A stretch of DNA of 64,000 nucleotides from Planctomycetota bacterium (lineage in GTDB: Bacteria; Planctomycetota; PLA2; JAEUHO01), in contig CBDCTJ010000007.1 in assembly GCA_965222115.1 (NCBI GenBank), positions 1,984,001 to 2,048,000 on the forward strand. Reading direction: 5' to 3'. Both the position numbers and the translations under genes were made by a program. Below the pieces are notes generated by a model that saw nothing but the letters and a program-made list of their open reading frames with translations, was not told where the DNA came from and ran no database searches. Shown here one piece after another: positions 28,755 through 58,878 of this stretch; position 1 is the stretch's first letter, and each line of letters opens with the position of its first letter.

Positions 28755-29654
28755 ATGAATCGTCTACATCACCTTGCCCTTGCCTCGCTCGTTGTCGTGA
28801 GTGCGTTTGCGACCGGCTGTGGAGCCGGAGGCGGCATGGAAGAACCGACAGCTCCCAATGTCGCGCCGGGCACGCCCTCCGACGTGGACTTTCTGCATGT
28901 TGCCAATGGTGGAAACATCATTGGCCACGCAACGGAAATTCAGCACGCCTTACTGAACGGAAATCCAAACGCGATACTCTTGATTACGCAAGTGTGGAAT
29001 CCACCGGGGCTCGCTGGCACCTACAACAATCACGCCATTGGCGTGTGGTACCATCCCATCGCCCAGCGCTGGCGAATCTACAACGAGGACATTGCGGCCA
29101 TGCCTACGGGTGCGTCGTTCAACGTTCGGATTGTGAATACTGACCCTGATGCGTTTCACTGGATTGCGAACCCTGGAAACACCATTGGCAATCGGACGAT
29201 CATTTCGGACCCTGCATACGACGGCGATGCATCACTCATCATGCTGGCCACACACAATTACAATCCACCCGGCGGTGGCGCGGTTTACAACGACCACGCC
29301 ATGGGCATCTACTTCAACGGCGTAGGCCAGTGGTCCATTTTTAATCAAGACTTGGCCGCCATGCCGAACAATGCCGGGTTTAACGTTCTTATGCGCCAGC
29401 CGAGCGGCACCCAGTACGTCCATGAAGCAACTGCTGGCAACATCACCGGCAACTATACGCTCATCAGTCATCCAGATCTTGATGGGCGATGGGGCGCCGT
29501 GTTTCAAGTCACGCAAAATTGGAGGCCCAATGATGTGTATAACGACAAGGTGATCGGCGTGTTCTATCATGAAATCGAACAGCGATGGGCCATCTTCAAC
29601 CAAGACGTAACGAACATGCCTGTGGGTGCGGCGTTCAATATCAGTATTGATTGA
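28755..29654 (+). CDS. Lipoprotein with three tandem ~85-aa repeats (DUF7452-like)
   Basis: AGGAG RBS, lipobox ATGC, three copies of H.A...N..G..T.I.....G......T..(W/Y)....YN...IG.(W/Y/F)......W.I(Y/F)N.D...MP..A.FN. Confidence 0.8.
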   Translation: MNRLHHLALASLVVVSAFATGCGAGGGMEEPTAPNVAPGTPSDVDFLHVANGGNIIGHATEIQHALLNGNPNAILLITQVWNPPGLAGTYNNHAIGVWYHPIAQRWRIYNEDIAAMPTGASFNVRIVNTDPDAFHWIANPGNTIGNRTIISDPAYDGDASLIMLATHNYNPPGGGAVYNDHAMGIYFNGVGQWSIFNQDLAAMPNNAGFNVLMRQPSGTQYVHEATAGNITGNYTLISHPDLDGRWGAVFQVTQNWRPNDVYNDKVIGVFYHEIEQRWAIFNQDVTNMPVGAAFNISID

Positions 29655-29796
29655 CCCCATCTAGGCACACGTTCATTCGACCTACATGCGGAGCGCAGCG
29701 ATCATGTTGCGCTCCGCACTTCTCGTTTTGGGCGCACTCGTTGGCTCCGCACTCTATGATGTGCGACACAATTTCGTTCGTTATGGCCAAGCGGAG

Positions 29797-32754
29797 ATGG
29801 AATCGCCCGTGTCTCGCCGATCCACCTGGGGAATGCTCCTGCTACTCCTGTCCGCGGGCATCTTTTTGTATGTTCGAGATCACTATGAAACACAGCATGG
29901 GACGCACTCGCCGGGTGCCGACGACGCAAGTAAGTTCGAGGGTACCGGGTTCACTCCCTACGTTGGCACTCGTAGAGTGCTTAGAGAGTCGCCGACGCCT
30001 AGTACAGCGCCTGTTCGTCACATGCCCGTCCAGGGTCGAGTAATTGATGCCGTGTCAGGCGTCGGTATCGCCGATGTTCGTGTTCATCTCATTCAATACC
30101 CTCGTGCCGTTGAACGGGTTCATTCGTCTACGAATCTCAATGGTGAGTTCTCAGTTGACGTTCCGGTATTCGACGACGCAAGCAAAAACGCGTGGATGGT
30201 GATCCCTCAGCACAGTCAGTACTTCGCGTCAATATGGTATGAAACTGACCACACTCAATCTGATCGGCCGCATGCGTCCAACAACAATTCGTTTGGACAC
30301 CTGGTGCTTGACGCCGCAGCAGAGCGCACGGAGCCCTTGGTCGTACGCATGGAGCCCGGTCAGTTGCTACATGGCATCGTATTGGATCCGGATGGCAAAC
30401 CGATTTCAGGCGCACGAATCGAAACAACAGAGTTTCCACCATCTGGTTCGTCTATGACCCGCGTTGCCAAGAGGCACTGGCTTCATATGTTTCCGGAAGT
30501 CCAAACGGATCATCGGGGACGATTCGCCGTTTCGAGGCTACCGCTAGAGCGAGCGTCGATTCACGTGTCTGCCACGCATGATCATTGGGTAGCGCGGTGG
30601 CAAGGACCGATCGATCCCGATCAGCATGAAGAGATTGAGATTACGATGGTGCGACCCGCCTCGCTCGAGATTCACGTCAAAGGAGCCAAAGGAAGCGCGT
30701 TCAACGCCACAGCCAGATCTGCCGGTCGATGGAACACGACAAGTTCACAGCGCAGGACAAGTGTAGCTTCGCCTATTGTCATCAAAGGACTGCCCCCGGG
30801 TTCCGCCGACGTCACGCTAAGCTCGGACGACGATCGCGATCGGGAGTCCAGTGTGGAAGTTTCGGATCTCAAACCCGGGGAACTACGACGTGTCGAGATC
30901 GAAGTGACGCGCGCCCACGTCGTGCGAGGAACTCTCGTTGACTCCAACGGATTCCACTTGAACGATGAGATACTGGAACTGCGCCCACCGAAACGTGAAC
31001 GCGCTATCGATTCCTCCAGGACATGGGACAGTGGCGAGTTTCGGTTTCGAAACGTGGAGACGCCCGGTCCCTTTGAACTATGGCTTGTGACGGGAGACCG
31101 TTCCGAGCGTTTAAGATCTCATGTCTTCGCTGATGGTAAGCGGATCGAGGTTGTGTCGAGCCAGACGCCGTTCGAGACGCTTAAGATTCAAGCGCTGGAT
31201 GAACGCGGCGCCGTATTTCGACGCGCGCATGTCAGCGTGGAGAGTCTTGATGACGCGAGTTGTGACGTCGAACGCGTGGGCGGGGAATCGCTTTTAGGCG
31301 AACATGCGTTTCGCGTGTCTGGGAAAGCGCCGGTGGTTGTCAAGATCTCGCCACCACGCGAGTCAGGCGCAGCGTCGTCTCCCTATTTCCATAAGTGTGT
31401 TTACTTGTCACGCATCCCCCGAGAAGTTGTTGAGATACAGTTGACGAAGTATCCCGAGCTTGTCGGGCAAGTCGTCGATGAGCGCGGCCAGGCGATCGTA
31501 GGCGCCAAACTAACGCTGAAGAATGGCGATGTTGTGTCCATTGATAGTCATGGATGCTTTCGCCATCCACTGGAGAACCACGAGAAACGTGGGTCGCGTG
31601 ATAATTATTTTGTGCGCGCCAAGCTCGTGGTGCCCGCCAATTTCCGGCCGGACCGCGAGCGCTCGCATCTAAGCAGCAGGTCGTTCAATCGGATTCTTGT
31701 GTATCGTCACGGCCGCGAAATTCGAGGTGGTTTGCTCGATGTTGATGGACGGCCGATTGCCCTCAAGAGCGTGCGTATAGACGCGCGCTGGGGCTCGATG
31801 CACGAAGGCATTGCTGTTGGCAAGTTCGCGACTGCGCATACGAATGATGGGGGGCGATTCCGATTCGCGGCGATGCCGGCAGGTTTGGTACAAGTCATTC
31901 TCAGTAAGAACGAACTCGCCGAACACGGCTACGTTTCAAAGAGTGCCTTTCTAAATGCTGGCGATGAAGAGACCAATTTTGTTCTTCGAAAAGGAAGCCG
32001 TCTGTCGGGCCGGCTCACGGGACTGCCTCTGACTGATGTGGATCTTCGACGAATGCGAGTGTTCACCACGCTAGCAGGAGTTCAATACTACGCGAAGTTA
32101 GAACGCAAACATGGTTTGATTACGTATCGATTCGATGGCCTGCCGCCTGCTTCGTACGACATCGTTGCCGTCGCGGATGAACCCTTGTTTATAGGCGTGC
32201 GCCGTGGCGTGCGCGCGCCCTCGGAAGGTGTAGAAATTCGTGTCCGCGTTCCAACTGGCACGATTGTGGGCACTGTTGATGTATCGCTGATCCCGATCCA
32301 CACGAATGTAAGAGTTCGGGCTTACTCAGAAGACGGGCTTGCGTTGGGGCACTCCACGACCTACGACTTGCGGGAATTTCGCCTCGAACAACTTCGTACG
32401 GATGTGACCTATACCCTTGTTGCCCAGCCCAGCATGTCTTCGTTCGATGGCGGTGAAGCCGTGGCTATGAAGCGCGGCGTGCGGGCGGGCGACACCGTGC
32501 ACTTGGTGCCGGTCGTGGGTTCGTACGTAGAGGGTCGTGTGGTGAGTGCGGCCGCACATATTGACTACATCAAAGCCGCGAACGGATCTGCCGAGTTTGA
32601 GGCTTACATCGATGAATCTACGGGCGGGTTCTGGATTGGCCCGCTTCCCCCGGGAACGTACTCCATTATTGCGGAAAACTCGGACTTGGGTGTCGTCAAG
32701 CGTATCGACGGCGTCACACCTGGTACCGACGAAGTGCTTTTGATCGAACGATAA
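29797..32754 (+). CDS. Membrane-anchored carboxypeptidase-regulatory-like (beta-sandwich) repeat protein, paralog A1
   Basis: N-terminal TM; repeated G.V.D..G.PI.GA / TD..GRF / GLPPG motifs. Track start 29686. Confidence 0.8.
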   Translation: MESPVSRRSTWGMLLLLLSAGIFLYVRDHYETQHGTHSPGADDASKFEGTGFTPYVGTRRVLRESPTPSTAPVRHMPVQGRVIDAVSGVGIADVRVHLIQYPRAVERVHSSTNLNGEFSVDVPVFDDASKNAWMVIPQHSQYFASIWYETDHTQSDRPHASNNNSFGHLVLDAAAERTEPLVVRMEPGQLLHGIVLDPDGKPISGARIETTEFPPSGSSMTRVAKRHWLHMFPEVQTDHRGRFAVSRLPLERASIHVSATHDHWVARWQGPIDPDQHEEIEITMVRPASLEIHVKGAKGSAFNATARSAGRWNTTSSQRRTSVASPIVIKGLPPGSADVTLSSDDDRDRESSVEVSDLKPGELRRVEIEVTRAHVVRGTLVDSNGFHLNDEILELRPPKRERAIDSSRTWDSGEFRFRNVETPGPFELWLVTGDRSERLRSHVFADGKRIEVVSSQTPFETLKIQALDERGAVFRRAHVSVESLDDASCDVERVGGESLLGEHAFRVSGKAPVVVKISPPRESGAASSPYFHKCVYLSRIPREVVEIQLTKYPELVGQVVDERGQAIVGAKLTLKNGDVVSIDSHGCFRHPLENHEKRGSRDNYFVRAKLVVPANFRPDRERSHLSSRSFNRILVYRHGREIRGGLLDVDGRPIALKSVRIDARWGSMHEGIAVGKFATAHTNDGGRFRFAAMPAGLVQVILSKNELAEHGYVSKSAFLNAGDEETNFVLRKGSRLSGRLTGLPLTDVDLRRMRVFTTLAGVQYYAKLERKHGLITYRFDGLPPASYDIVAVADEPLFIGVRRGVRAPSEGVEIRVRVPTGTIVGTVDVSLIPIHTNVRVRAYSEDGLALGHSTTYDLREFRLEQLRTDVTYTLVAQPSMSSFDGGEAVAMKRGVRAGDTVHLVPVVGSYVEGRVVSAAAHIDYIKAANGSAEFEAYIDESTGGFWIGPLPPGTYSIIAENSDLGVVKRIDGVTPGTDEVLLIER

Positions 32755-32877
32755 TGTCACGCTCATCGTGACCATCGTACGTGCCTTAAGCAACACAGAT
32801 GATTGTTCAATGCGAATTCGTTAGAATCATTCCGTTGGCTCATCACACCGTTCCCCATGATCAAAGAAGGGTTTCAC

Positions 32878-35877
32878 GTGTCAAAACATGCGGCTGCAGT
32901 AGTGATCACTCTACTCGTGGTTAGTTGCCTGTTCCTGCTCCTACGTGACTCCCGCAGCGAGCGACGGGTCCATCCTGAGACCCAAAGCAATGCATCGGTT
33001 GAGCTCAATCGAGCAGAGCAAAAAGGCGGAGCGCTGCAAGCGGCACTCACTGAGCCGTCGAAACCTGCGCTGGCCGAACGAGATTGGTCGCCAGAGTTGT
33101 TGGCGGCGTCACTTGGCGATATCGCGGTGTCCGGCATTGTGCGGGACGCTGGGACGAGGAAGGGCGTAGCCAACGTCAGCGTCGTTATTCAGGGTGACGA
33201 AGACACAGAATCGACCCGAACGGTGACAACGGGTGAGGATGGAACGTTTGCGTTGCGCGTGCCGTATTTCCAGGACGCGAAGAAGAACAACTGGCGCGTG
33301 TTTCCGGTGCATCAATCGTATTTCTTGCCCTATTGGTTCGAATATTTCACGCACCAACTTCGGCAGAATGGGATGTCCATTGGCGCGTTGGTTCGTGATG
33401 GCGCAGAAGGCGCAGGCCTGTTCATTCGAATTGACGCCGACGATCCCACGCCCCAGTCCCTCTCGATAGATCTGAAGCGAGGGGCGCGCGTCGTCGGGCG
33501 TGTCGTGGATGCGAGCGGAACACCCATTTCCGGTGCAAACATCATCACCCATCTCACGCAGCACGACATGATGACGCGATTGATCGATAAGTACGCGTCT
33601 CGTAGCAAGGTGCCGCCGGTCGTAACGCGTGAGGATGGCTCGTTTGAACTGGCCAACATTCCTACGTCCGTCGCTTCATTTGAAATTGCTGCGACGCATC
33701 CCGAGTGGGTGTCACGGTGGCATGGGCCGTTTGAGCCTTCAGACGACACGAACGTAGACATCGTGATGCAGCGCGCGGCATCCTTGGAAATCGATCTCAA
33801 AGGGGTATGGGAAGCGCAAGTTGACATCCAAACGAAGGGCGCTGGACGTTGGGCAGATTGCGAGTCGTCCACATGGTCTGACATCGGCAAGACGGCAGTC
33901 GTTAGGCGTGTACCACCGGGCGATGTCTCCCTTCGTGCGAGATTTCTAAACACCGAGGACACATCCAAATCGATCACCGTGCATGACCTCAAGCCTGGAG
34001 AGAGGCGGCGCGTTTCTCTTTCGCTGGCCGAGTATCACCAGATTGCGGGATCATTGGTAGACGAGAAGGGCGGTGCGATTGCGGAGGAGTCACTTGAACT
34101 GCGGCTTGATGATGGGCGTCGAGTCGTCGGTGAGTGTAGTACGGGAGACGCGGGGGAGTATCAGTTCGACGGGCTCACCGAGCCGGGACACTACTCGCTT
34201 TGGATCGTTACTGCGAATCGAGTCGAGCAGATCAAGGATCGTGTTTCATTGGGTCATGGCCATCGCGTCACTACCACGCCCACGCCTCTAACCACAATCC
34301 GCGTCAGTATTGAAGATTCCCTTGGGAAGATTGTGAAGGGCGCTCACCTGAGACTGATGGGGCTCGAGGGCCATGATGTAGAGAAGCGAAGCGACAGAAC
34401 ATCGCTCGATACTCATGTTCACACGGTGAATTTTCTGGGCGTTGTACCGATCGTTGTCTGTGCGTCCGTGCAAGAAACGCAAGACACAAGAGCGCCCGAT
34501 TGCTATTCCACGTGCGTCGTCATTGATCGCGTGAGTGCCGAAGCTGTCACCATTAGGCTTGCGAATGCGCCCACGCTCATGGGTCGAATCGTTGATTGCC
34601 GCCAAGTGCCCGTGGCGAGTGCGCGAATTGCGCTATCGAACGGCGAATCCGTAGTGACCGACGTGCGTGGGCACTACCGTTACGTGTGGCCCGAAGGTCA
34701 AAGCGTGTCGGGTGAAGCGCAAGACGACATTACCGCAAAGCTCTCGGCGCCTAGGGATGTTCGAGTTGACGGTGATGAATTTGATATTTCCTTCGATCGT
34801 TGGAATTGCCTAACGTTGTATCGCGGCGGTCGAACTATCACCGGTCGCCTGGTGGGTGAGGCCATGGCGAATCGAGGGGATCTATCGAGAGTTGACGTTG
34901 TCGCCGAATGGAAGGGCGATCGGGATCCGCGTTTCTCCGAAGGCATCTTCGAAACAAGAACAGATAAGGCGGGTGCCTTTGCTTTGCCCGTAATGCCTCA
35001 TAAGACTGTTGAAGTGTGGGTAGACAAACACGAATTGGCGAGGCGCGGGTTTCGTGCCAATCGTCAAACTATGGTCGCATTACCTGGTATTAATGCTCTT
35101 GAGTTCAGGTTGGAACGAGGTGTTTCGGTCTCCGGGTTCTTGACCGGCAGCGAACTCGACGCGACCGACTTGAGCAGGATTCGCATAGAAGCTCGTGCGA
35201 AGGACTTCTCAACCGCCGTGCATCCCGTACGCGAAGCGGGCCGTTTGTCGTTTCGTTTCGAAGGCCTTCCTCCCGGCCCCGTCGATCTGCTCGTCTCTGA
35301 AATGGGCGGGCCTCTGTTGGGCATGAAGTCTGCCGTGCACGCTCCGTCAAGCGACGTGACCATTCCACTTGACTATCCGAACGGACGAATCTCAGGAACG
35401 TTGGATCTCTCGGACGTCCCGCTGGACTGCAGGATGTTAGTGATGGCGTTTCCTCATGACGATCTTGAGTGGCCTCACTACGAGTACAGTGATCCGAAGG
35501 CGTTCACGTTCACAGGCCTTCGCAAGGAGACGACCTACACGTTGTCGGTGCAGCCGTCGGAAATGAGCGCCGGCCACAACGTGGTGGCGTTGAAGCAGGG
35601 TGTTCGCGTAGGTGAAACCGTCGAGCTTAAGCCCGTCGCGGGTGAATACATCACCGGTCGCCTTCAAGGCGCTGCGACGTATGTGTCGTCGGTTCAGGCC
35701 ACCATTGGCGTTGTGTCCTACGGTTACACGCCAGAAGGACCCGAAAGGACGTTTCGACTGGGACCCCTAGCGCCCGGTGTGTATACGATTGAAGCACGCG
35801 ATGAGAACTACGATTTGTTGGCGAGCAAGGCGGATGTGCGCGCAGGGGAGAACGACGTCGTGCTTGTGCTCAAGTAG
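32878..35877 (+). CDS. Membrane-anchored carboxypeptidase-regulatory-like repeat protein, paralog A2
   Basis: Same architecture and colinear with A1 (ATH..WV.RW.GP..P, RAASLEI..KG, AGRW, DLKPGE.RRV). Confidence 0.8.
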   Translation: MSKHAAAVVITLLVVSCLFLLLRDSRSERRVHPETQSNASVELNRAEQKGGALQAALTEPSKPALAERDWSPELLAASLGDIAVSGIVRDAGTRKGVANVSVVIQGDEDTESTRTVTTGEDGTFALRVPYFQDAKKNNWRVFPVHQSYFLPYWFEYFTHQLRQNGMSIGALVRDGAEGAGLFIRIDADDPTPQSLSIDLKRGARVVGRVVDASGTPISGANIITHLTQHDMMTRLIDKYASRSKVPPVVTREDGSFELANIPTSVASFEIAATHPEWVSRWHGPFEPSDDTNVDIVMQRAASLEIDLKGVWEAQVDIQTKGAGRWADCESSTWSDIGKTAVVRRVPPGDVSLRARFLNTEDTSKSITVHDLKPGERRRVSLSLAEYHQIAGSLVDEKGGAIAEESLELRLDDGRRVVGECSTGDAGEYQFDGLTEPGHYSLWIVTANRVEQIKDRVSLGHGHRVTTTPTPLTTIRVSIEDSLGKIVKGAHLRLMGLEGHDVEKRSDRTSLDTHVHTVNFLGVVPIVVCASVQETQDTRAPDCYSTCVVIDRVSAEAVTIRLANAPTLMGRIVDCRQVPVASARIALSNGESVVTDVRGHYRYVWPEGQSVSGEAQDDITAKLSAPRDVRVDGDEFDISFDRWNCLTLYRGGRTITGRLVGEAMANRGDLSRVDVVAEWKGDRDPRFSEGIFETRTDKAGAFALPVMPHKTVEVWVDKHELARRGFRANRQTMVALPGINALEFRLERGVSVSGFLTGSELDATDLSRIRIEARAKDFSTAVHPVREAGRLSFRFEGLPPGPVDLLVSEMGGPLLGMKSAVHAPSSDVTIPLDYPNGRISGTLDLSDVPLDCRMLVMAFPHDDLEWPHYEYSDPKAFTFTGLRKETTYTLSVQPSEMSAGHNVVALKQGVRVGETVELKPVAGEYITGRLQGAATYVSSVQATIGVVSYGYTPEGPERTFRLGPLAPGVYTIEARDENYDLLASKADVRAGENDVVLVLK

Positions 35878-35922
35878 GCGTGGGCCCATACGATTGGGAC
35901 CGCGCAGCGGACACGTGAGCAT

Positions 35923-36009
35923 TGGTGGCCTCGGTGGGAGTCGAACCCACACTCCCTTTACGGGAAACGGATTTTGAATCCGTCGCGTCTGCCATTCCGC
36001 CACGAGGCC
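35923..36009 (-). tRNA. tRNA-Leu(CAA)
   Basis: GGCCTCGTGGCGGAATGGCAGACGCGACGGA-TT-CAA-AA-TCCGT, long variable arm, GGTTCGACTCCC, ACCA end. Confidence 0.96.
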
Positions 36010-36119
36010 GTGTTGGAAGCGCCACAGAGTAGCGACAGCGCCCAGCGAATCCAGCCCTGCGGGCCAGAAAGGAGGTGAACCCACTCCCGGTATGATCGTT
36101 TCTACCACTGGAGGCACGC

Positions 36120-39100
36120 ATGGAATCGCGCTTCGCAGCTCTGCTCATCGCGCTCGCGGTGGCAGCCCTCGGTTGGTTTCTCCTACTTCGGGGCGATGTG
36201 ACGCCAGGCACGGACCAAGTTCAGAACTCCGAGGGACCAGGCAGTACAAGGACAGCGAGCGACTTGGACAGCCCCACACTTCAATCGGCGCGAGATGACC
36301 GGCAGGTGCTTCCGGCAGACGTTCAGGAAATCGAGGAGCCTGCCATACGCGCCGAGCCGCGACTGGTTGAGTTTTCTGGCGTCGTAATCGACACCCATCA
36401 ACGACCGGTCCCGAACGCTACGGTCGAAGCCAAACTATTTGGCAAAGTGATTGCCACGATGGACACCGACGAGCAAGGGCGCTATTCGTTTCGCCATTCA
36501 GTATCACCCATGGACGATCGATTCTCTGGTGGAACGGTTGTCGCGCGAGGACCCGCGGGCGAAGTGGGTTACGAGACGTTTTATTACCGCGATGTCATGG
36601 CGGATGCCCCGGATGAGGGTGGAAGCGACGAAAGCATCGAACACGAGAACATCTCGCCTATTCTCTTGCGTGCAGGTGGATCCATACGTGTTTCTGTGGC
36701 GATGTCATGTGACGACTCACTTCCCGCGCGCGTTTGGATTGTGAAACGCGAGCGCGGGCATTCGCGGGACGATGTCATCGCAGTGGACTACACCAACGAG
36801 CGTGGGCAACTCAAGTTCGATGGGCTCGAACCGGGGCGCTATCGGGTTGTGGCGGCCACAAAGACTTGTGGGCGAGACTCGGCGTGGGTCGAAGTCGAGC
36901 GAGAAGATGTCGTGAATGTGGCGCTCAGAATTCCCGAGTCCCGCACGTTGGAGATCCGCGTTCTTGAGAAGGACACCCAAAAGCCTATCGCTGGCGCGCG
37001 CGTTGTAGCCCAAGAGGTTCAATCGCGAGGTCGCGACGATGCTGCTCAGGAAGGAACGTACAGTTTCGTCTCCACGCCAAGTCTTGTTGCGACCGATCGA
37101 TCCGGCGTTGCCAAATTCCGTGGATTGGGGAATCGCGAGCGGATTCGCGTGCGCGTGAGTGCGCCGGGTCACATTGTTCCCATGCGCGAAGGCAAGGAGT
37201 CGGCGCAGGACTTGAGTTCTCTATCCCCTGAGACAACCGCCGCAACGGTTTACTTGCAAGGGCCTCGAACCGTGACGTGGAAGATTCTTGAGGGGGGACT
37301 CGATATGCCTCCCGACAATACGCGTGTTTCGATAAACGCCCTTGATGGTGTCGGCGATCAGTATATGCCCGACGCGGGTGTCATTCGCGCCGGCGTTCTT
37401 TCGGTTTCGGGATGGCCGCCGCACGTACAGACGGCCCGAGCCCAACTTCGAATGGGCGACGGTACCCGGATCGCGTCTGCCACGCTTCACGTGGGCCGCA
37501 ATGCAATCGCAGGGTCGCCCATCTCCTTTGTCGCGCACCGCACGTTACGCATCCACGTCCAAAACGATGACGGGACGCCTGCGGAGAGTGTCTGGGTTTT
37601 GCTTGACGACGGGACAAACGGCATGATGCCAAATGCCGTAACTGACGCGTCAGGCTTCGCGGCCATCGAGGATCTACCGAGTGATTCCGACACGTCATTA
37701 CCTTGCTATGTCTCGTATACATCGCGTCTGCAAGACGGTTGGCTTGTTGGCAATGTCCAACTCCATGCGGAGGATCCAGAACTCACGTTTACAATCCCCG
37801 GCCCGCGGACCGTGCGCTTCACCTTGATTCTAAACGGGAAACCTGCCCCTGCCGGCTTCAACGGAACGCTCTCGGTATCGACGACGCCAAAGGCGCTGGT
37901 GAAGATGGGCCCGACCGGCGCGATTGAGTTTGAAACCGATGGCCGAGGGATGTTCGAAGCGCCATTGCAGATTGCGAGCGCCGTGCGTTCGCTTCAGCCC
38001 AACATACGGGCCGTAGGCACTCGACAGACGGGGTACCCAACGATTCAGGTTCCGGCGGCTGGTCCGATTCAAGCGACTATAGACCTGAGGCGTGGATTCC
38101 CCGCAAACGTGCAATTGCGATTGGCGCAAGAAAGCGGGCCATTCTCCATGGTCGTTCATCGAAAATCGCCGGACGGGTTACGCTGGGAATCGCTGGCGCC
38201 GAAGGAACTTACGGTTGAGTATCGCGGCAATCCGAATGGGTCCGCCTATCGGTTGTGGTTGCCGACAAAAGGGACGTATCGCGTACTCGATGGACAAACT
38301 GAAATTGCTACGCCATCGTTCGAAGTAGGCCCAGCGATTGAAGAGCCTTCTGTCGTATTGGATCTCTCCAAGACCGCATGGGTTTCCGGTCGGGTCGTAT
38401 TGCCGGAGGGATTTCATCACATTGGCACGTCCGTTTCCCCAGTGGGTCATTCCATCAATCGCACGGCCACACGATGGGCGCCTCCTATTTCCCATAGAGG
38501 CGTCGGACGAGTCCAGTCACATGATGGGAGCTTTCGAGTCCGCATTGACACGAGTCGAGAAACGAAACTGCGTGCCTACCATCCCACGTTGCGCCCACAC
38601 GCAACTCGAGGCTACGTTATCGTCCGAGGGGCTCGATCCGACGTCGAACTTCATATGGAAGCGGGTGGGGTTGCGCGACTGTCTCTCGACAAGCCGATCC
38701 CCACGCTCGACCGCTATACCGGGCGCGTGCGTGTCGTCATTACGCCGGTGGACCGACCCCATGAACAGGAGGTGCTAGTTGGATTCATCCATGCAAATCG
38801 CAATCGTATTGACCTCCGTGGCTACCTGCCGGGGCGCTATCACATGTGGGTGGACACGCTGGCATTTTTGCCGCTAGAGTTGCGAAACATCTCGTTGGGG
38901 GCAGGTGACACCGACCTTGGAACATTTGCCGCTCAGCGTGGAACTACCCTCCGCGTGCGCGTGAAAGATGAAAGCGACAAAGCAACTTTCAGTGTCGTCA
39001 CAGTTATGGCGGTGTACCTCGGTGACCTTCCCTACACACGAATCGCTCGCTCGCACGGCGACGTGATAGAGTTGTCCGGATTGGGAGCTGGCCGCTTTCA

Positions 39101-39197
39101 TGTAACTTCTTCGTACACACCCACGAGCGGGCGAGGCATCGATGAGATTATCGAAACCGATGGCAAGTCTTCGCTGGACATTGGTCCTCCCAAGTAA
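36120..39197 (+). CDS. Membrane-anchored carboxypeptidase-regulatory-like repeat protein, paralog B1
   Basis: GGAGG RBS, N-terminal TM, repeated TD..G / GLEPGRY motifs. Confidence 0.82.
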   Translation: MESRFAALLIALAVAALGWFLLLRGDVTPGTDQVQNSEGPGSTRTASDLDSPTLQSARDDRQVLPADVQEIEEPAIRAEPRLVEFSGVVIDTHQRPVPNATVEAKLFGKVIATMDTDEQGRYSFRHSVSPMDDRFSGGTVVARGPAGEVGYETFYYRDVMADAPDEGGSDESIEHENISPILLRAGGSIRVSVAMSCDDSLPARVWIVKRERGHSRDDVIAVDYTNERGQLKFDGLEPGRYRVVAATKTCGRDSAWVEVEREDVVNVALRIPESRTLEIRVLEKDTQKPIAGARVVAQEVQSRGRDDAAQEGTYSFVSTPSLVATDRSGVAKFRGLGNRERIRVRVSAPGHIVPMREGKESAQDLSSLSPETTAATVYLQGPRTVTWKILEGGLDMPPDNTRVSINALDGVGDQYMPDAGVIRAGVLSVSGWPPHVQTARAQLRMGDGTRIASATLHVGRNAIAGSPISFVAHRTLRIHVQNDDGTPAESVWVLLDDGTNGMMPNAVTDASGFAAIEDLPSDSDTSLPCYVSYTSRLQDGWLVGNVQLHAEDPELTFTIPGPRTVRFTLILNGKPAPAGFNGTLSVSTTPKALVKMGPTGAIEFETDGRGMFEAPLQIASAVRSLQPNIRAVGTRQTGYPTIQVPAAGPIQATIDLRRGFPANVQLRLAQESGPFSMVVHRKSPDGLRWESLAPKELTVEYRGNPNGSAYRLWLPTKGTYRVLDGQTEIATPSFEVGPAIEEPSVVLDLSKTAWVSGRVVLPEGFHHIGTSVSPVGHSINRTATRWAPPISHRGVGRVQSHDGSFRVRIDTSRETKLRAYHPTLRPHATRGYVIVRGARSDVELHMEAGGVARLSLDKPIPTLDRYTGRVRVVITPVDRPHEQEVLVGFIHANRNRIDLRGYLPGRYHMWVDTLAFLPLELRNISLGAGDTDLGTFAAQRGTTLRVRVKDESDKATFSVVTVMAVYLGDLPYTRIARSHGDVIELSGLGAGRFHVTSSYTPTSGRGIDEIIETDGKSSLDIGPPK

Positions 39198-39251
39198 CAT
39201 TCGATGCCACCGCGTCGATCCAGCACTACCGCATGGCGGCGGTAGAGAATC

Positions 39252-42200
39252 GTGACTCGCTGGATTCTACCCCTGGCCGGTATCGTGACGGTCGCAGCCA
39301 TTATTCTCCTTTTCGATGGCCACTCGAGTCAAAACGATGTGCCTGAGACAACCGACTTTGAGCATGTTGCAGATTCTACACGTGCGCCCGAACTTCAAGG
39401 CACACTTGTTGCGGAGCCAGACGGCTACATCTCCAGCGAGTATGTCCAGGAGACGCAAACCAAGTCGCCCATGCGGGCCAAGTTCTTTGGTTCGGTCGTG
39501 GATCGCAAGTTCACGCCGGTGGTTGGCGCCGACATCACGGCAAGAATGCGCTCGGGCGTCGTTGCGACCACAACGACAAAGGGCGACGGATCGTTTTCCT
39601 TTGAGACCGAGGTTGTTCCGGGTGGTAATCGATTTGATGTCGGCACTGTGATTGCGCAAGACGCTTCAGGCGCTACGGGGTATGCCGAGTTTGAGGCGCC
39701 CGCACCTTGGCTCGTGCCGGAGATGGAGGGAGAGCGCGGTATTGCCATCCCAACGATTCGCCTTGAAGAACACGAAGGAGTCGTGTCGATTCGTGTGACG
39801 ACGTCATGCGATGGTGGGTTACCCGCCCGCGTGTATGTGGATGCGGGTGTAGGGCAACGAAGTTCGTTCGCTGCCCATTGGACAGATGCCGAGGGTCAAC
39901 TCACCATCCGCGGACTGGCACGAGGCAGTTATCGCTTCATAGCGGCGGCGCCAGGCTGTGGACGGGCGACTGCTTCCACAGTCATCGAGGACGACGAGCA
40001 TCGTCAGATGGACTTGAACATTCCTGTAGCTCGGACGGTTGTCGTTCGCGTCGTTGAGACGGGGACCGATACACCGGTTACCGACGCGCGCATTGCTGTG
40101 AATGAATGCACGGGACAGGAAGTCGCCAGTGGGACAGCGCGTATCTTGCCACTGAGCCCAAGCGTGTACGCCGATGAACATGGTGTTGCACAGATTGAAG
40201 GACTGGGTCCAAACGACTGTTTGTGGCTGCGTGCGTCGTCGGAGTCTTCTCGCGTAACGGCGGAGGAATGGACCAAGGTCGACGCGCACGCCACCGATGT
40301 CACGTTGGAACTACCACCGAAGCGCACAATCACGTGGGCGTTGATCGATGGGGGACACGGCATGCCGCCCGATGGCTCCAACGTGTCGCTGCTCAAGAAC
40401 GACCTCTCCCCCAAACCGACCTATCCCGATTCAGGCCTTGTTGAGGGCAATACGATTACGGTGACGGGATGGCCGCCCGGTGCCATCGAGGCCCAGGCGT
40501 ATGTTCGAGGCTTTGGCGCGGCACTCTTGCGTGCCGACGACGGTAAGGATCGAGGTCACAACGCGGCATTTTATCCATTGCGCACGATTCAACTCCTGGC
40601 GAAGGAAGCCGATGGATCGCCAGCGAAGGGTGCCACGTTCTTCGTTCGCTCCATGGGGCTCGCTGGGGGGACGTCCCAATCCCAGACCGACGATCAAGGG
40701 CGTGCCAAAGTTGAGGGCCTCTTTGGTGGTCCCGGAGCCATTGCGTACTGGAATGTGAGTCGCAGTAGCCTTCGTCGATCACCGCAGGCGCCTGTACGCG
40801 ATCACGTATCGATGGAACGCGGCGACGCCTCGGTCACCTATACGTTTCCCGCCAAGCGACGTGTGGTGGTAACGCTGCGCGTGGACGGTAAGGCGCCGCC
40901 ATCCGACATTGTGGGCACCGTGAATGTGTCGGCTCTCTACGCGCCGGGCAGTGGCTCTTCATCGAGTGTGACCCAACCCATTGAGGGCAGTAGCGCGGTT
41001 GACGTAGCGTTTGCGGTAGACGAAGGCGCCACGGCGTTTGTCGTTTCTGTGAGAGCACCGGGATACCAGCAAGCCGAAGCATGCGTTGTGCCGGTAACAC
41101 CGGACCTCGTCACGTATGCCGTCGTAGATCTCGAGCCTAGATTCGAAGCCGTCGTGCATGTCGAGACGCCCGAAGACTTCATGTTTCGGATTCAATCGAT
41201 GCCCTATCCCAAAGGGAAGAGTACGCCGCCGGTGATTCCGCAACCGACGTTTTGGTCCAACCGAACGCGTCGCACAAGTCCCCGAGCGGGAACGAAACAC
41301 GTTATGCGGCTCGAGGGGTTGGTCCCGGGTCGTCACATTGCCTACGACGCGTTGTCCGGCAAGATAAGTGAGCCGTTCGTCGTCGGAGGTGGCGGGAAGC
41401 CGCCCGAGGTGTCACTCGACTTGAGCCGTGCAGGATGGATCATGGGCAGAGTGATTCCACCGCCTGGCGAGAAGCTTGGGCATACCTCGGTTGCCGTGAT
41501 TGAGCGTCAGGTTCTTGGTGCCATACCCGGATTGAGACAGCCGCAGCCCGGCGCCTTCGTGAATCCGCAGACCGGGGAGTTCAGAGTGCGCTCCGATGGC
41601 GAGCGCCCGATCACACTTACCGCGCAATCGTCAAAGTATCGTCCGCATTCAACGCACGGACGCGTCACGGTTCGTGGACCTCGTACCGGTGTAGAACTTC
41701 GACTAGCCAAGGGTTCGCGTGCGACGATCCGCTTCGATCGCGTGCTGCGAACCGTACCGTTTTATTCGAGCAATCCGAGGGGAATCGTTTTCGCTGGCGA
41801 TAACCATCGCGACGCCGCGGGCCAAACCATTGCCACCCATGTCAGCGTCGTACTCACGTTCAGTACGGGTGAAACAAGACAGATTCGAGCAGACGTTTCC
41901 AAAGACGGTCGCAGCATCTCCTTTGGTGGCTACGCTCCGGGTCGTTACTCCCTCTGGATCGACGCCGCTCCGTTCAAACCGTTAGCTCTTTCGCGCATAG
42001 AACTCACTACGTCGGACCAGGATCTGGGCACGCATTCGCTTTCAGAAGGCGCGAACGTCGCGATCGACATTCCAAGCGACGAATTCGACAAGTACAAACC
42101 CTTCATCGCCCGCGCCATATCGACGACCGCGCCCTACTACATGCGTAATGTCTCCGTATCCGACGTCCCTCGCATCTCGCTCGCGGGTCTCGGTCCCGGC

Positions 42201-42302
42201 ACGTTCCGCCTTTCGGTACACAGCAGCTCCCGCCCCGACATCGCCCTCAATGAGACGATCACCGTCAACGGCTCCGAAACCATCGAGCGCACCCTCAAAT
42301 AG
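39252..42302 (+). CDS. Membrane-anchored carboxypeptidase-regulatory-like repeat protein, paralog B2
   Basis: Colinear with B1 (SCD..LPARV, CGR..A, T.TW....GG..MPPD, GWPP, LDLS...W..GRV..P.G, GY.PGRY..W.D). Confidence 0.82.
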   Translation: MTRWILPLAGIVTVAAIILLFDGHSSQNDVPETTDFEHVADSTRAPELQGTLVAEPDGYISSEYVQETQTKSPMRAKFFGSVVDRKFTPVVGADITARMRSGVVATTTTKGDGSFSFETEVVPGGNRFDVGTVIAQDASGATGYAEFEAPAPWLVPEMEGERGIAIPTIRLEEHEGVVSIRVTTSCDGGLPARVYVDAGVGQRSSFAAHWTDAEGQLTIRGLARGSYRFIAAAPGCGRATASTVIEDDEHRQMDLNIPVARTVVVRVVETGTDTPVTDARIAVNECTGQEVASGTARILPLSPSVYADEHGVAQIEGLGPNDCLWLRASSESSRVTAEEWTKVDAHATDVTLELPPKRTITWALIDGGHGMPPDGSNVSLLKNDLSPKPTYPDSGLVEGNTITVTGWPPGAIEAQAYVRGFGAALLRADDGKDRGHNAAFYPLRTIQLLAKEADGSPAKGATFFVRSMGLAGGTSQSQTDDQGRAKVEGLFGGPGAIAYWNVSRSSLRRSPQAPVRDHVSMERGDASVTYTFPAKRRVVVTLRVDGKAPPSDIVGTVNVSALYAPGSGSSSSVTQPIEGSSAVDVAFAVDEGATAFVVSVRAPGYQQAEACVVPVTPDLVTYAVVDLEPRFEAVVHVETPEDFMFRIQSMPYPKGKSTPPVIPQPTFWSNRTRRTSPRAGTKHVMRLEGLVPGRHIAYDALSGKISEPFVVGGGGKPPEVSLDLSRAGWIMGRVIPPPGEKLGHTSVAVIERQVLGAIPGLRQPQPGAFVNPQTGEFRVRSDGERPITLTAQSSKYRPHSTHGRVTVRGPRTGVELRLAKGSRATIRFDRVLRTVPFYSSNPRGIVFAGDNHRDAAGQTIATHVSVVLTFSTGETRQIRADVSKDGRSISFGGYAPGRYSLWIDAAPFKPLALSRIELTTSDQDLGTHSLSEGANVAIDIPSDEFDKYKPFIARAISTTAPYYMRNVSVSDVPRISLAGLGPGTFRLSVHSSSRPDIALNETITVNGSETIERTLK

Positions 42303-42384
42303 CGTACGCCTGCGTGCCTGGCACAACTGTGTATGGTGGGCTGTCGAGAGTCGTCCAACGGTGTGCTACTCTCCGGATACCGAC

Positions 42385-43812
42385 ATGAACGAACGCCGAA
42401 CCGTATGCGCGCTCGCGATCGTAGCGCTACTGATCATAGGACTTGCGTGGCTATTGATGCGGGATGATGCGGTCGAGGTGCCCGAAGTCGTGACATCAGA
42501 CGTCGCGAGCGAACCCGCGGAACAACCGGTCGAGCTACTGTCCGGCGTTCCTGATGCACTTCGTAAGCAGAAGAAACCACCTGCGGAGAAGGCGCCCAAG
42601 AGTGCAAAGGAGACAACAAACGAATTGATGGGCATGTTGGGGGAGAAGCAGACCCCGCGCGTGCAGCCAGTGCCGAGCAAAGAACAACTCGACGAGATTT
42701 CGCTGTATGAGCCTGCGCCGCCCGGCGTGCTTATTGGCGCCGTGTTCGACGGCAAGGAACCGTTTTCGGACGGCGAAGCCGTTGTTTGGATGCAAGGAAA
42801 GAGTTTCGGCGCCAATGGGATTCCTGCAGGTGAGAAGCCTATTCGTGCTGTATCCCTTGGCAGCGACGGCGTGTTTCGCGTTGATGGGTTGGAGCCGGGC
42901 TACTACTACGTTGGCGTGCGTGCGCGCGGTGGGCCGCCTCGTCTTGGATTTCACAAACTTCTCGTTGGTCCGAAACCATCGCCGAAAGCGCTGTTCGTTC
43001 TCGGTACCGGTAGGCTGTTTGGAACGGTGTATGACGATCAGGGTCGTCCAGCGACCCATGTGTGGGTGCGTGCGTCTATGAGCGGAACCGCTGGGCGACT
43101 TGAGAGTACGTCGATTCAGCAGGTCCGCACCGATCGCGATGGCTCGTACTCGTTTGATCTTTTGCGTGCAGGCGGCGGTTGGCTTTCGGTTGCGTACTCC
43201 GGGAACTTCAATGACGACGCCACGACACCCTCACGGAAGTACTCGCTTCGCGTGGGACAGGAAAGACGGATCGACATCGGTACGCCACACGGCCTACGTA
43301 CGCTACGCGGGAACATCGTTACGGCGGGCGGCGTTCCCTTTCGAGGTCCGGGGAAGATCATAATTTCCGGTGGCGCGTCTCGGGGCTACGTCGTTACGCG
43401 CTATGCAGAAGATGGAACCTTTTCGCAAAAGCTCGCTCCCGGTGAATACAACCTCGCGGTGATGTTTCCCGACCCGACACGCCAACCCACGTCGGGCGGC
43501 AGATTCAACGTGAGGATTGGTGAGGAAGACGCAAGCACGACGATCACCATTCCGGGTACCCGGCTCACCGGTCGCGTCCATGATCGCGGCGGACGTGCCC
43601 CCCGCGCGACGAACGGTGTCACGTGGCGCACGCCCAAGAGTGCTTCTCTTCGCCTACGAGGATCTGCTCGTATTCGGGGCGACGGCACCTACACTATTGA
43701 CGGGCTCCCTCCCGCAACCTATCTCCTTCGTGCGCCCGGAAATGAAGTGGAAGTCGAAGTCGTCATTCGACCGGGCGATGAACGTGTAGCGCAAGACCTG
43801 GAAACACCGTAA
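42385..43812 (+). CDS. Shorter membrane-anchored carboxypeptidase-regulatory-like repeat protein
   Basis: TM after ATG 42385; DGVFRVDGLEPGYY, GTVYDDQGRPA, TDRDGSYSF, DGTYTIDGLPP. The track's upstream extension (from 42148) overlaps the previous gene. Confidence 0.8.
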   Translation: MNERRTVCALAIVALLIIGLAWLLMRDDAVEVPEVVTSDVASEPAEQPVELLSGVPDALRKQKKPPAEKAPKSAKETTNELMGMLGEKQTPRVQPVPSKEQLDEISLYEPAPPGVLIGAVFDGKEPFSDGEAVVWMQGKSFGANGIPAGEKPIRAVSLGSDGVFRVDGLEPGYYYVGVRARGGPPRLGFHKLLVGPKPSPKALFVLGTGRLFGTVYDDQGRPATHVWVRASMSGTAGRLESTSIQQVRTDRDGSYSFDLLRAGGGWLSVAYSGNFNDDATTPSRKYSLRVGQERRIDIGTPHGLRTLRGNIVTAGGVPFRGPGKIIISGGASRGYVVTRYAEDGTFSQKLAPGEYNLAVMFPDPTRQPTSGGRFNVRIGEEDASTTITIPGTRLTGRVHDRGGRAPRATNGVTWRTPKSASLRLRGSARIRGDGTYTIDGLPPATYLLRAPGNEVEVEVVIRPGDERVAQDLETP

Positions 43813-43958
43813 TCAGGCCCAACGCCCCGATAAATAGGCCTTTCGTGGGCAATTCGGGACCTGATTCTCAGGAACCCCGTGTCCCTCCCTCTCCAACCCC
43901 TTGCGCAGGGCAGGGAGGCGGAGATAGTGGGGGCGTCACTCTCGGACGAGGATTTCTA

Positions 43959-44984
43959 ATGAATCTCAAGAAGCTGGTTGGCGCCTCGGCGCTCGCGCTC
44001 CTCATGGGCGCAGGAATTGTGTATGCGAAGGCAGAGGTGGGGGACGAAGCCACCGATGTCACCGCAGGCGACTTCATCAACATTGAACCCACTACGATGT
44101 TGGGCTTGAAGGGCCGCGTCATCTTTTTCGAGCTCTTCGGTACCACCTGAGGTCCGTGCGTTGCCCAGGTTGGGCATCTCAACAAGCTTCAGGAAGAATA
44201 CGACGCCAAGGGCTTTACCGTGATCGCAGGATCGGGTGAACCCAAGGAGAAGATAGAAGCCTTCGTCGCAAAGCACGACGCGAAGTATCCGATCTTTTGC
44301 AGTACGAAGGTCAACGACTATAGCGGGACCGGCATACCCCGCGTCGCGTTGATTAGCGCCGATGGGAAAGTTCTTTTCGTTGGTAGTCCGAGCGGTGTCA
44401 GTAACAGCATGATCGAAAGGGCGCTCAAAGACGTCAGCAAGCCCAATCGCATCAGCACTTGGGCCTTCACCATCAATAAGGCGCTCCCCGACGTTCCGGA
44501 AAAGATGAGTGCCGTGGTTAAGGATCTCGCCAAGAAGAAGTTTGGCGCGGCGCTCAAGCGTGCCGAGGGCATCGCCCCTAAGCTCGAAGGTGACGACAAA
44601 GCCAACGGTGATACGGTTGTTGAGTGGATTCGAAAGCGCGCCACCGACAATATGGATCAAGCCGCCACACTTGTTTCGGAAGGCAAGATTTTCGCTGCCC
44701 ACAATCTCTACGAGACGATTGAAGATGAGTTCAAGGGCCACGCATTGAGCAAAGAAGCGAAGGCCGCGTGCAAGGAACTCTTGTCCGACAAGGCCAACAA
44801 GCTTGAGGTCAAGGCGGGCGAGAAGTTTGAAGCACTTAAAGCCGAGGCTCGCAAGGAACGCACCGCCGAAAAGAAGATCGATGTTCTAAAGGCCATGCTT
44901 TCCAAGAAGTATGCCGAGACGGAAGCGGGCAAAGCCGCCGCCAAGCTCATCGAGAAGATCAAGGCAGGACCGAAGAAGAAGTAG
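43959..44984 (+). CDS. Predicted exported TlpA/redoxin-family selenoprotein (UxxC; Sec codon 44148-44150) with a Lys-rich helical C-terminal domain
   Basis: Track ORFs ending 44150 and starting 44220 are in frame: LKGRVIFFELFGTT-U-GPCVAQVGHLNKLQEEY...GIPRVALISADGKV. This is the canonical TlpA pattern with Sec in place of the first Cys. Signal peptide present. Confidence 0.9.
44162..44176 (+). promoter_or_regulatory. Candidate bacterial SECIS element
   Basis: Perfect stem tgccca/tgggca with a GGU loop, starting 11 nt after the UGA (same spacing as the E. coli fdhF minimal SECIS). Confidence 0.78.
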
Positions 44985-45033
44985 TGTATCGAGCCCATGC
45001 GCGACGCTCGCGTCGCAACCGTCCATAAGAAGA

Positions 45034-45064
45034 CGGGGCCGACGAAAAACGTCGGCCCCGCTTT
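45034..45064. terminator. Probable bidirectional intrinsic terminator
   Basis: 11-bp perfect stem cggggccgacg/cgtcggccccg with an A5 loop between convergent genes; second hairpin gcgacgc/gcgtcgc at 45001-45016. Confidence 0.75.
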
Positions 45065-45096
45065 GGGTTTTGAGGATGGGTTGCTACGCGCGGCCG

Positions 45097-46932
45097 CTAG
45101 ACACCTCGGAGTATCTTGATTTTGGTCCCTTTGAGGACCTTAGTGCCTGCCGCGGTGAACTGCTTCTTGATCTTGAAGCCGCCAAAGCCCAAGAGTTGCC
45201 ACTTGAGGCCCTTGGCGAGCAAGGCTTGCTTGGCTGCCGCCACAGTCATGCCTTTGACATTGGGCACCTTGACTTTGATCAGTTGACCCGGGATCAAGAC
45301 GAGCTTGAACTTGTAGGTCATCTTGACGGTCTTGCCGATTTTGAGCATGGTGCCAGGCGCGGGGCTCTGCGTCTTGACGACCTTCACACCCACACCGTTC
45401 GCGGGACCGAAGAACTGTGTCTTGAAGCCGGCAGCGACAAGCTTGTTCTTTGCCTTTGTGGTCGACAGACCAATCACGTTGGGCACCTTCTTTGTTAGGG
45501 GCAGGATGATCATCTTGAACTTATAGGTCATCTTGACGGTCTTGCCGACCGCAAGCATGGTTCCAGGCGCAGGACTTTGAGTCTTCACGACCTTCACGCC
45601 GACACCATTGGCGGGCCCAAAGAACTTCGTCTTGAAACCAGCGGCAATCATGATGTTCTTGGCCTTGCTCGTGCTCTTGCCAATGACATTCGGCACGGGC
45701 TTCTTGAGCTGCAAGATCAACGGCTTGTTCTTGTAGACAACCTTGACGTTGGATCCCTTAGCTAGGTAGGTACCCGCCGTGGGAAGCTGCGAAATGACCT
45801 GCGTGGTGAACATTGGCGAGGGCGCGGGACCACTCAAGACGGGCTTGAGCGACGCGGCCTGAACCTTCTGCTTTGCGGTGATCTTCTTGAGGCCGATCAC
45901 ATTCGGCATCTTCGCGACGTACGGAAGATAGAACGTGATGCGTGTTCCGGGATTGACGAGCGATCCAGGGGCACGACTCTGCTTGAAGATTCGCTTGATG
46001 TCGCGATTGGGACCAAGCGCCTTACGCTTCTTGTAAAGCAGGCCACGGGCAAGCAACGCCAAGCGCGCTTCATTGGGCTTCATGCCACTCAGATTGGGAA
46101 CTTTGGACTTAGCCATGGACGGGGGCTTGACCGCAACAATGATTGTTACATCGCTACCGTAGCCAACAATCGAACCCGAAGCGGGCGACTGCGAGAACAC
46201 GCGCCCCTTGGGCCAGTTCGAGATTTTGCGAACGATGCTCACGCCAAAGCCAAAGGCTTCCAAGTGCGACGCCGCCGCAGCTTCCGACAAACCGCGCACG
46301 TAGGGGACTCGTGCTTGCGTGGGAATCTCAATCGGCTTGGCGATCTCAATGCGCACTTCGGTGCCAAGCGGAAGTTCGGTGTTGGGCGCCTGATCCTGGG
46401 CGATCACAGTGTTGGGTGTGCGATCGGCTGCCGAAACGAGGAAAAAACGTGGCGTGAAACCAAGTTCAACCAACGCGAGCTCAGCATCGGCCATGGAACG
46501 ACCCAAGAGATCGGGCATGACCGCCATGGCCAAGTCGCCTTCGTCTCCAGGCAGTTCCGGATCAGGAAATTGATCTTCGCCGCCCGGTACGGGGGCTCCG
46601 CCATCCGGTGCACCGGCATGTTCAATCACTCGCAAGACTACCTTTGAGCCGCGCAGTATCTCGCTGCCACTCTTGGGATCTTGACCAATGACCGTACCGG
46701 GCGCTGCCACGTCATCATTGACGTGAACGATCTCGGCTTCGAGTTCTCGCTCGCTGAGGAGGGTGAGCGCGTCGGCTTCACTCTTCCCAATGAGCCCGGG
46801 GACTTCGGTGGTGTTGTCTTCACTCGCGTGAACGGGGTGAATCACCAGGGTTAGTAAACACAGTGCTGCGAGTGTCGATGTAACGGACTTTCGCAGCGCG
46901 AAGGATCGAGTCGGGGTATTGAGGCGGGACAT
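45097..46932 (-). CDS. Secreted protein composed of eight PASTA domains
   Basis: Signal peptide (VHA|SE) and eight (V/M)P.(V/L).G....A...L...G.....V..Q.P..G repeats. Confidence 0.88.
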   Translation of the reverse strand: MSRLNTPTRSFALRKSVTSTLAALCLLTLVIHPVHASEDNTTEVPGLIGKSEADALTLLSERELEAEIVHVNDDVAAPGTVIGQDPKSGSEILRGSKVVLRVIEHAGAPDGGAPVPGGEDQFPDPELPGDEGDLAMAVMPDLLGRSMADAELALVELGFTPRFFLVSAADRTPNTVIAQDQAPNTELPLGTEVRIEIAKPIEIPTQARVPYVRGLSEAAAASHLEAFGFGVSIVRKISNWPKGRVFSQSPASGSIVGYGSDVTIIVAVKPPSMAKSKVPNLSGMKPNEARLALLARGLLYKKRKALGPNRDIKRIFKQSRAPGSLVNPGTRITFYLPYVAKMPNVIGLKKITAKQKVQAASLKPVLSGPAPSPMFTTQVISQLPTAGTYLAKGSNVKVVYKNKPLILQLKKPVPNVIGKSTSKAKNIMIAAGFKTKFFGPANGVGVKVVKTQSPAPGTMLAVGKTVKMTYKFKMIILPLTKKVPNVIGLSTTKAKNKLVAAGFKTQFFGPANGVGVKVVKTQSPAPGTMLKIGKTVKMTYKFKLVLIPGQLIKVKVPNVKGMTVAAAKQALLAKGLKWQLLGFGGFKIKKQFTAAGTKVLKGTKIKILRGV

Positions 46933-58876: not shown

Positions 58877-58878
58877 CG

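Follow-up and report, generated by a model that had tools for sequence, protein, structure and literature searches.

The two apparent gene fragments between positions 43,959 and 44,984 of the 64,000-nucleotide stretch of DNA analyzed here (the window) are, judging from the comparison with related genes, almost certainly one gene for an exported redox enzyme, and the UGA codon that interrupts them is very probably read as selenocysteine (Sec64), a reading to which we assign a probability of about 0.93. From the ATG at 43959 to the TAG ending at 44984 there is a single frame of 341 codons whose only internal stop is the TGA at 44148-44150, in the context FELFGTT-TGA-GPC. A sequence-only reading of this DNA had placed that TGA where a thioredoxin CxxC has its first Cys, in a frame open on both sides, and had pointed to the flanking motifs LKGRVIF (residues 49-55) and GIPRVALISADGKV (residues 125-138, including Pro127), all of which are borne out. 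The gene caller did split the gene, as that reading remarked: the protein collection stores it as two separate entries, P0042 (residues 1-63) and P0002 (residues 88-341). The elements of the gene and its immediate flanks are as follows.

43959..44984, + strand: coding sequence of 341 aa with TGA read as Sec, based on the reading frame and a structure model (mean pLDDT 93.8, pTM 0.85)
44148..44150, + strand: in-frame TGA, putative selenocysteine U64 and nucleophile of the UGPC motif, based on conservation and Cys pairing
43948..43952, + strand: Shine-Dalgarno-like GAGGA, 6 nt upstream of the ATG, from the sequence
45033..45061, both strands: terminator-like hairpin of 11-12 bp between the selenoprotein gene and a convergent PASTA-repeat gene, from a terminator scan

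The terminator scan returned 2 sites against 2.3 in shuffled sequences, so the count is not enriched, and no match to a sigma-70 promoter was found within 43700-45200. An opposite-strand ORF at 43956-44741 was considered as a separate gene and was taken to be a shadow of the selenoprotein gene because comparable minus-strand ORFs in related loci match only one another.

The evidence rises above chance because the TGA is conserved, whereas the hairpin behind it is weak evidence alone. GTDB genomes were scanned with one pattern taken from the C-terminal end of the protein, which yielded 27 candidate stretches and 10 confirmed relatives (L001-L010); a single pattern of this kind will miss members. 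All 10 relatives come from Planctomycetota MAGs and share 36-52% identity with the window protein. The TGA occurs at the same codon in 10/10 loci, none of which has a further break, and the search was not biased toward TGA because the active site is not part of the pattern. Alternatively, a nonsense mutation or a sequencing error might have produced the TGA, and the locus would then be a pseudogene or a normal gene with CxxC; only one base separates TGC from TGA. This is contradicted by the TGA in all 10 loci at such low identity and the lack of any other break, and the rare codons found where the hairpin pairs also argue against it; we give this alternative next to no weight.

Cys-containing homologs of the codon, which the sequence-only reading had proposed as a check, were found in number. 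Among 279 proteins fetched, 121 span at least 100 of the 146 helical-domain positions (the window's own entries, P0001 and P0002, excluded), and at column 64 these comprise 56 with CxxC, 56 without an N terminus, 6 with Ser, 2 with Asn and 1 with Asp. Of the 65 relatives in which this column is occupied, 56 therefore have Cys, 9 have Ser, Asn or Asp, and none has Trp or Gly, and the in-frame UGA is aligned with a conserved Cys of the homologs with homology on both sides. No U occurs in any of the 279 fetched sequences. In a first search that gave 23 matches (the window's own fragment, 16 close relatives and 6 distant thioredoxin-domain proteins), all 16 close relatives begin at residue 71 or later, and the first piece of an 81%-identical relative likewise ends at residue 63. 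Some of these headless entries may be contig ends.

Gene callers give a downstream ORF of 254-270 aa in every close relative, which would suit either of two other explanations, namely that the two pieces are separate proteins or that TGA is a general sense codon of the host, for Trp or Gly (codes 4 or 25). The starts assigned to the downstream piece, however, scatter over residues 68-99 and cut through the thioredoxin fold. An alternative genetic code is ruled out by the normal TGA stops in the window, together with the absence of Trp and Gly from column 64 in the 65 relatives: 6 of 25 long window ORFs end in TGA, with a further stop 5-78 codons downstream; TGG use is normal, at 235 of 14839 window codons; and the reading frames of two ABC permeases close with TGA no more than 2 residues from the end of a Pfam domain. 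We consider a recoded genome or a pair of separate proteins barely more probable than a pseudogene or an error, and all of these together still very improbable.

The reading of the protein as a selenoenzyme with U64 and C67, proposed from the sequence, is thus supported by the Cys/TGA pairing, the conservation of TGA, a hairpin in 11/11 genes and a tRNA-Sec near one ortholog. The tRNA-Sec lies at 13005-13103 of L001, on the same strand and about 4 kb downstream of the ortholog (ARAGORN; Rfam RF01852, 70.9 bits, cut-off 47), and is the one case among the flanks of the 10 orthologs (at most 8 kb per side). Pfam named no selA, selB, selC or selD among the 37 window proteins scanned, and the 64-kb window holds no tRNA-Sec. 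Four planctomycetes have been described as having Sec machinery, and one planctomycete as having split thioredoxin-like candidates (PMC4807772). When the window was scanned for TGA in a UxxC or CxxU context with at least 40 open codons per side, 18 sites were obtained, and none except that at 44148 was recognized as a redox motif.

Insertion of Sec in bacteria depends on a SECIS-type hairpin and SelB. Two structural elements are predicted at and behind the UGA.

44162..44176, + strand: SECIS-like apical hairpin UGCCCA-GGU-UGGGCA with a 6-bp stem, from folding and the bacterial SECIS consensus (PMC13188914)
44148..44191, + strand: predicted lower stem in which the UGA and the next codon (44148-44153) pair with 44186-44191, from folding

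The apical hairpin is the one described in the sequence-only reading, with 6 bp and a GGU loop, and begins 11 nt after the UGA; the loop occupies 44168-44170, 17 nt from the UGA. The bSECIS consensus given in section 5 of PMC13188914 calls for a loop of 3-9 nt with G in its first two positions, a stem of 4-16 bp, a distance of 16-37 nt from the UGA and an MFE of -7.5 kcal/mol or lower, and the window hairpin agrees with every term (GGU, 6 bp, 17 nt, and -7.8 for the hairpin or -16.3 for 53 nt as calculated with our own script). Of 1946 arbitrary TGAs in the window, 1284 satisfy a loose SECIS rule. In shuffle tests the 53 nt from the UGA gave z = -1.32 (20/200 shuffles as stable) and the 23-nt hairpin z = -2.07 (5/200), and the hairpin taken alone is unremarkable. 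A stricter rule, which was set after the hairpins of the family were known (at least 5 bp, -5 kcal/mol or lower, G[G/U] at the start of the loop), is satisfied by 11/11 genes. The corresponding figures are 129/1946 for window TGAs, 360/2599 for TGAs of the loci and 3-22% for codons inside genes, and these ratios overstate independence because the rule is post hoc and the loci are related.

Across the 11 genes the hairpin occupies two registers 4 nt apart. The loop lies at +16/17 in the window gene, L003, L004, L005 and L006 (register 1), and at +20/21 in L001, L002 and L007-L010 (register 2), where the near-palindromic codons of Gln-Val...His-Leu are used. In all five register 1 genes the third base of Gly72 changes in step with base 2 of codon 69 (C-G, G-C, U-A, G-C, C-G), which amounts to three pair types, while the pairs of register 2 scarcely vary and carry little information by themselves. 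Covariation assessed over the 11 genes under a single-register structure is not significant, with the pairing reached in 32/500 shuffles and the covariation score in 22/500, likely because two registers are mixed; RNAalifold returned a different, weak consensus at -3.11 kcal/mol. For the lower stem, 83% of cells over the 11 genes are paired, with no two-sided changes. Codons that are rare in these GC-rich genes are placed where the stems need them: in 10 genes, codons ending in A or T number 24/140 behind the UGA against 145/2491 in the rest (Fisher p 5e-6, with kinship among the genes ignored), and GTT encodes Val71 in L003, L004 and L006, although it is used 0/15, 0/14 and 0/21 times elsewhere in the same genes. 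The residues encoded by the hairpin form the signature Q-V-G-H-L of the Sec clade, in contrast to x-[IM]-P-H-[LMV] in most Cys relatives.

If TGA is translated as Sec, residues 27-144 of the product match Redoxin PF08534 at 43.7 bits (cut-off 26.6) and AhpC-TSA PF00578 at 36.3 bits (cut-off 26). A structure model built from a 98-sequence alignment predicts a thioredoxin domain up to about residue 158, followed by nine helices. The features of the N-terminal part are as follows.

43959..44033, + strand: probable cleavable signal peptide, residues 1-25, from hydropathy judged by eye
44034..44432, + strand: TlpA/ResA/DsbE-type thioredoxin-fold domain, residues ~26-158, from Pfam and the fold match
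44130..44132, + strand: Glu58, six residues before U64, invariant in 14/14 aligned members
44157..44159, + strand: Cys67, second residue of UxxC, invariant in 14/14
44337..44339, + strand: Pro127 at the cis-Pro position of the thioredoxin fold, invariant in 14/14 and in at least 90% of 98

Glu58 occupies the site of the buried acid of thioredoxins. The leader has a basic start, a hydrophobic core and A-K-A before Glu26, with no lipoprotein Cys, and a similar leader, again judged by eye, is present in the 10 orthologs too (11/11 genes), which suggests Sec/SPI export to the periplasm. A third Cys, at residue 114 (44298-44300), occurs in 5/11 genes, and a 14-residue insert between the domains (residues ~158-171, 44430-44471) is confined to the window's subclade (the window gene and L001-L006).

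The model and the alignment together show an extended thioredoxin fold with (U/C)xxC and a proline at the cis-Pro position, a combination shared with ResA, TlpA and DsbE(CcmG) (3gl3, 4nmu, 2f9s, 1jfu). The best structural match of the first domain as modeled is 3gl3 (Z 18.1, rmsd 1.8 A, 132 residues), the Z values to 2f9s and 1jfu being 16.1 and 13.3, and the best matches of a sequence profile against the PDB are likewise of the DsbE/ResA type. The description as TlpA-like in the sequence-only reading holds at the level of fold and family, but the protein is not a TlpA ortholog, as it scores 26.7 bits against a cut-off of 230 with the TlpA equivalog NF047696. No NCBIfam model passes its cut-off for the 341-aa protein: ResA NF002854 gives 52.9 against 170, TUGYCR redoxin NF053656 17.8 against 100, SelL-related NF040769 18.1 against 120, and VPGUxxT type 1 NF041382 19.8 against 350, where the motif here is TTUGPC; WAxxUGC NF041054 is not among the matches for the window protein. 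The window protein also differs from ResA, TlpA and DsbE in having Sec for the first Cys, an extra helical domain and a cleavable leader, where those proteins have a membrane anchor, and its loci share no common neighbor such as the genes for cytochrome c maturation.

The AhpC-TSA match above its cut-off, to which a weak GSHPx match (E 0.002) can be added, raises the question of whether the selenoprotein mainly scavenges peroxide or sulfenic acid in the envelope, as a Prx/GPx-like enzyme, instead of acting on protein disulfides. Three full-length Cys relatives bear the JGI label "peroxiredoxin", the gene stands alone as is often the case for detoxifying enzymes, and UxxC proteins have been called "Prx-like" in the literature, with 225 Prx-like 1 and 68 Prx-like 3 sequences reported from ocean samples (PMC2398784). 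The active site, however, is UGPC and not the PxxxTxxU given for Sec peroxiredoxins in PMC13188914; an Arg after the cis-Pro, Arg128, is found in the window gene only (1/11); and DsbE/ResA structures (Z 18.1-15.2) outrank the first Prx/BCP types (Z 14.6). A peroxidase role seems to us unlikely, and a disulfide reductase remains the preferred reading of the first domain.

The second half of the protein is less readily classified.

44451..44966, + strand: all-helical Lys/Ala-rich domain of nine helices, residues ~165-336, from the structure model

Modeled alone, this domain reaches a mean pLDDT of 95.7. Lys accounts for 34 of the 181 residues of the C-terminal region (19%) and for 14-20% across the 11 genes, and the domain has no conserved Cys. 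The Lys-rich helical character noticed in the sequence-only reading is real, but it is not peculiar to this gene, being common to at least 56 CxxC proteins and accompanied by a weak match to NF041382. Pfam gives no match for the helical domain of the window protein, although TPR_6 is found in 3/70 members and YfiO in 4/70, and the BamD and YbgF models each match 8/98 members. A Foldseek search with the domain returned nothing at E 0.001 or lower, the best values being 0.23-0.24 for YfgM and BamD, and the best fold match (Z 9.2 over 53 residues) lies within the helical-bundle background, below significance. The absence of a fold match in either library does not imply a new fold, and the domain is best called loosely TPR-like. 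Residues 180-331 weakly match positions 192-347 of NF041382 (E 3.9e-4), a model that matches 49/98 family members at E 0.01 or lower (best 1.5e-19), and the domain is probably homologous to the C-terminal half of this model. VPGUxxT type 1 is similar to the window protein in being a thioredoxin-like selenoprotein of comparable length (349) and differs in its motif, the window active site being UGPC.

The size and conservation of the helical domain, along with its weak TPR, BamD, YbgF and YfgM likeness, also bear on another possibility, in which the selenoprotein would serve secreted proteins as a disulfide isomerase or folding chaperone, its helical domain being essential and its redox site accessory. 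Consistent with it, the whole architecture is kept with Ser, Asn or Asp at position 64 in 9/121 relatives. On the other hand, the fold matches of the domain are below significance, no DsbC-type dimerization domain was recognized, and UGPC, a reducing motif of the thioredoxin type, counts against an isomerase or chaperone. We judge this possibility to be improbable to about the same degree as a peroxidase role.

The account that we favor, and regard as reasonably probable as a whole, is of an exported enzyme that would use its UGPC site to reduce disulfides in the periplasm and its helical domain to bind clients. SelB bound to the hairpin behind the UGA would deliver Sec-tRNA and place Sec at residue 64, and the signal peptide would direct the chain to the periplasm. 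There, U64/C67 of the thioredoxin domain would alternate between the reduced state and a selenenyl-sulfide, with the selenolate attacking a disulfide or an oxidized cysteine of an envelope protein and Cys67 resolving the mixed bond. The enzyme might be re-reduced by a membrane carrier of the DsbD/CcdA type, as the biology of TlpA, ResA and DsbE suggests, although no such partner was found nearby, and the helical domain would most likely hold the client or a partner protein. Without selenium, translation would halt and leave a 63-residue stub, and the output of the enzyme would therefore be expected to follow the selenium supply.

The family history was approached with a quick, midpoint-rooted tree of 98 rows (the 11 TGA genes and 87 of 172 fetched proteins covering the helical domain), built from residue 75 onward. 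A clade of 55 rows (SH-aLRT 95) contains all 11 TGA genes, 32 headless entries, 4 CxxC proteins and 8 without the first Cys, whereas the remaining 43 rows comprise 34 CxxC, 8 headless and 1 other. Within this clade, the window's 20-row subclade (support 100) consists of 7 TGA genes and 13 headless entries, with no Cys forms. The 8 of 55 members without the first Cys imply that the protein can persist without the redox chemistry of that site. P0027 and P0032 have Cys at position 64 yet keep QVGHL or QVSHL and are nested in the clade, which suggests a possible Sec-to-Cys reversion, in a tree with a midpoint root and many weak inner forks. At the Sec column, nine full-length relatives carry Ser (6), Asn (2) or Asp (1) instead: P0054, P0060, P0063, P0069, P0091, P0099, P0102, P0133 and P0113. 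Some of them may derive from Sec loss, since a single base separates TCA (Ser) from TGA. Eight headless fragments outside the QVGHL clade, starting at residues 68-77 (P0073, P0090, P0123, P0137, P0141, P0142, P0160 and P0172), may be further independent Sec forms or contig ends.

A more far-reaching idea, which we put forward tentatively and think doubtful as it stands, is that these genes represent an unmodeled Planctomycetota family of exported two-domain selenoenzymes whose SECIS lies within its own protein signature, has slid by 4 nt with a G-led loop, and has been given up repeatedly as Sec changed to Cys and then to Ser, Asn or Asp. Q-V-G-H-L would in that case have replaced the x-I-P-H-L of the family, jointly with the birth, sliding and loss of the SECIS, a part of the idea that we hold equally doubtful. 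Were it true, the origin, movement and loss of bacterial SECIS elements could be followed as a natural series within the family, which would also be an exception to the view that the Sec-to-Cys change in bacteria is rare and limited mostly to FdhA and SelD (PMC1794560, PMC13188914).

Among bacterial selenoproteins, those with UxxC in a thioredoxin fold are the commonest. Redoxin selenoproteins with UxxC are already known, also in Planctomycetota, and are listed under PF08534, cd02966 and PF00578 in Table 1 of PMC13188914. The window protein has the same Pfam domains, UxxC and a UGA followed by an in-frame SECIS in common with these catalogued proteins, and differs, as far as table entries allow comparison, by its 170-residue helical domain and signal peptide (PMC13188914). 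Unnamed metagenome proteins that combine a CxxC redoxin with the helical domain (P0027, P0032, P0034, P0175-P0181, P0041 and others) share the two-domain layout and the leader at no more than 40% identity but have Cys at position 64. No published description of the two-domain family was found in a literature search lacking many papers. The genome list of BSepDB (PMC13326102) contains at least 752 planctomycete mentions, and family members may already be present in BSepDB or in NCBI protein records under a generic redoxin name. What is new is the two-domain architecture, the clade, the sliding SECIS and the possible reversions of Sec to Cys or Ser.

The general picture of bacterial selenoproteins is unchanged by these findings. 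Their practical gain lies in annotation: a redox enzyme of uncultured Planctomycetota has been missed because its close members appear as headless "hypothetical" fragments in the collections searched, and a family HMM would mend the headless entries and mark selenium use in the phylum. In addition, with its two SECIS registers and its Cys and Ser branches, this small family allows tests of SECIS plasticity and of the direction in which Sec and Cys are exchanged.

The genomic surroundings give no hint of a substrate. An all-against-all search with the filtered ORFs of the 10 loci revealed no conserved operon: apart from the gene and its shadows, it recovered just the synteny between L009 and L010, and no conserved neighbor that would name a substrate or reductant was found among the 10 loci, neighbors being kept solely in that close pair. 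Directly upstream in the window (29686-43812, + strand) lies a tandem array of five genes whose large products carry carboxypeptidase-regulatory-like (PF13620) repeats. Four of the products have about 1020 aa and one has at most 554 aa, and a tRNA-Leu at 35923-36009 interrupts the array; no link between this array and the selenoprotein gene was seen. The convergent gene downstream (45097-46932, - strand) encodes a 611-aa protein with eight PASTA domains. A plasmid search gave 13 records, none of which covers 80% of the query. Elsewhere in the window there are a group II intron with a reverse-transcriptase ORF (539-2425, - strand), a gene for a protein with three DUF7452 repeats (28719-29654, + strand), and several possibly defense-related genes: a GmrSD-type restriction gene (4609-6396, + strand), a D12-class adenine methyltransferase gene (26049-27110, + strand), and the gene for an STY4199-like HEPN protein adjoining a TPR/adenylate-guanylate cyclase gene (56327-60954, - strand).
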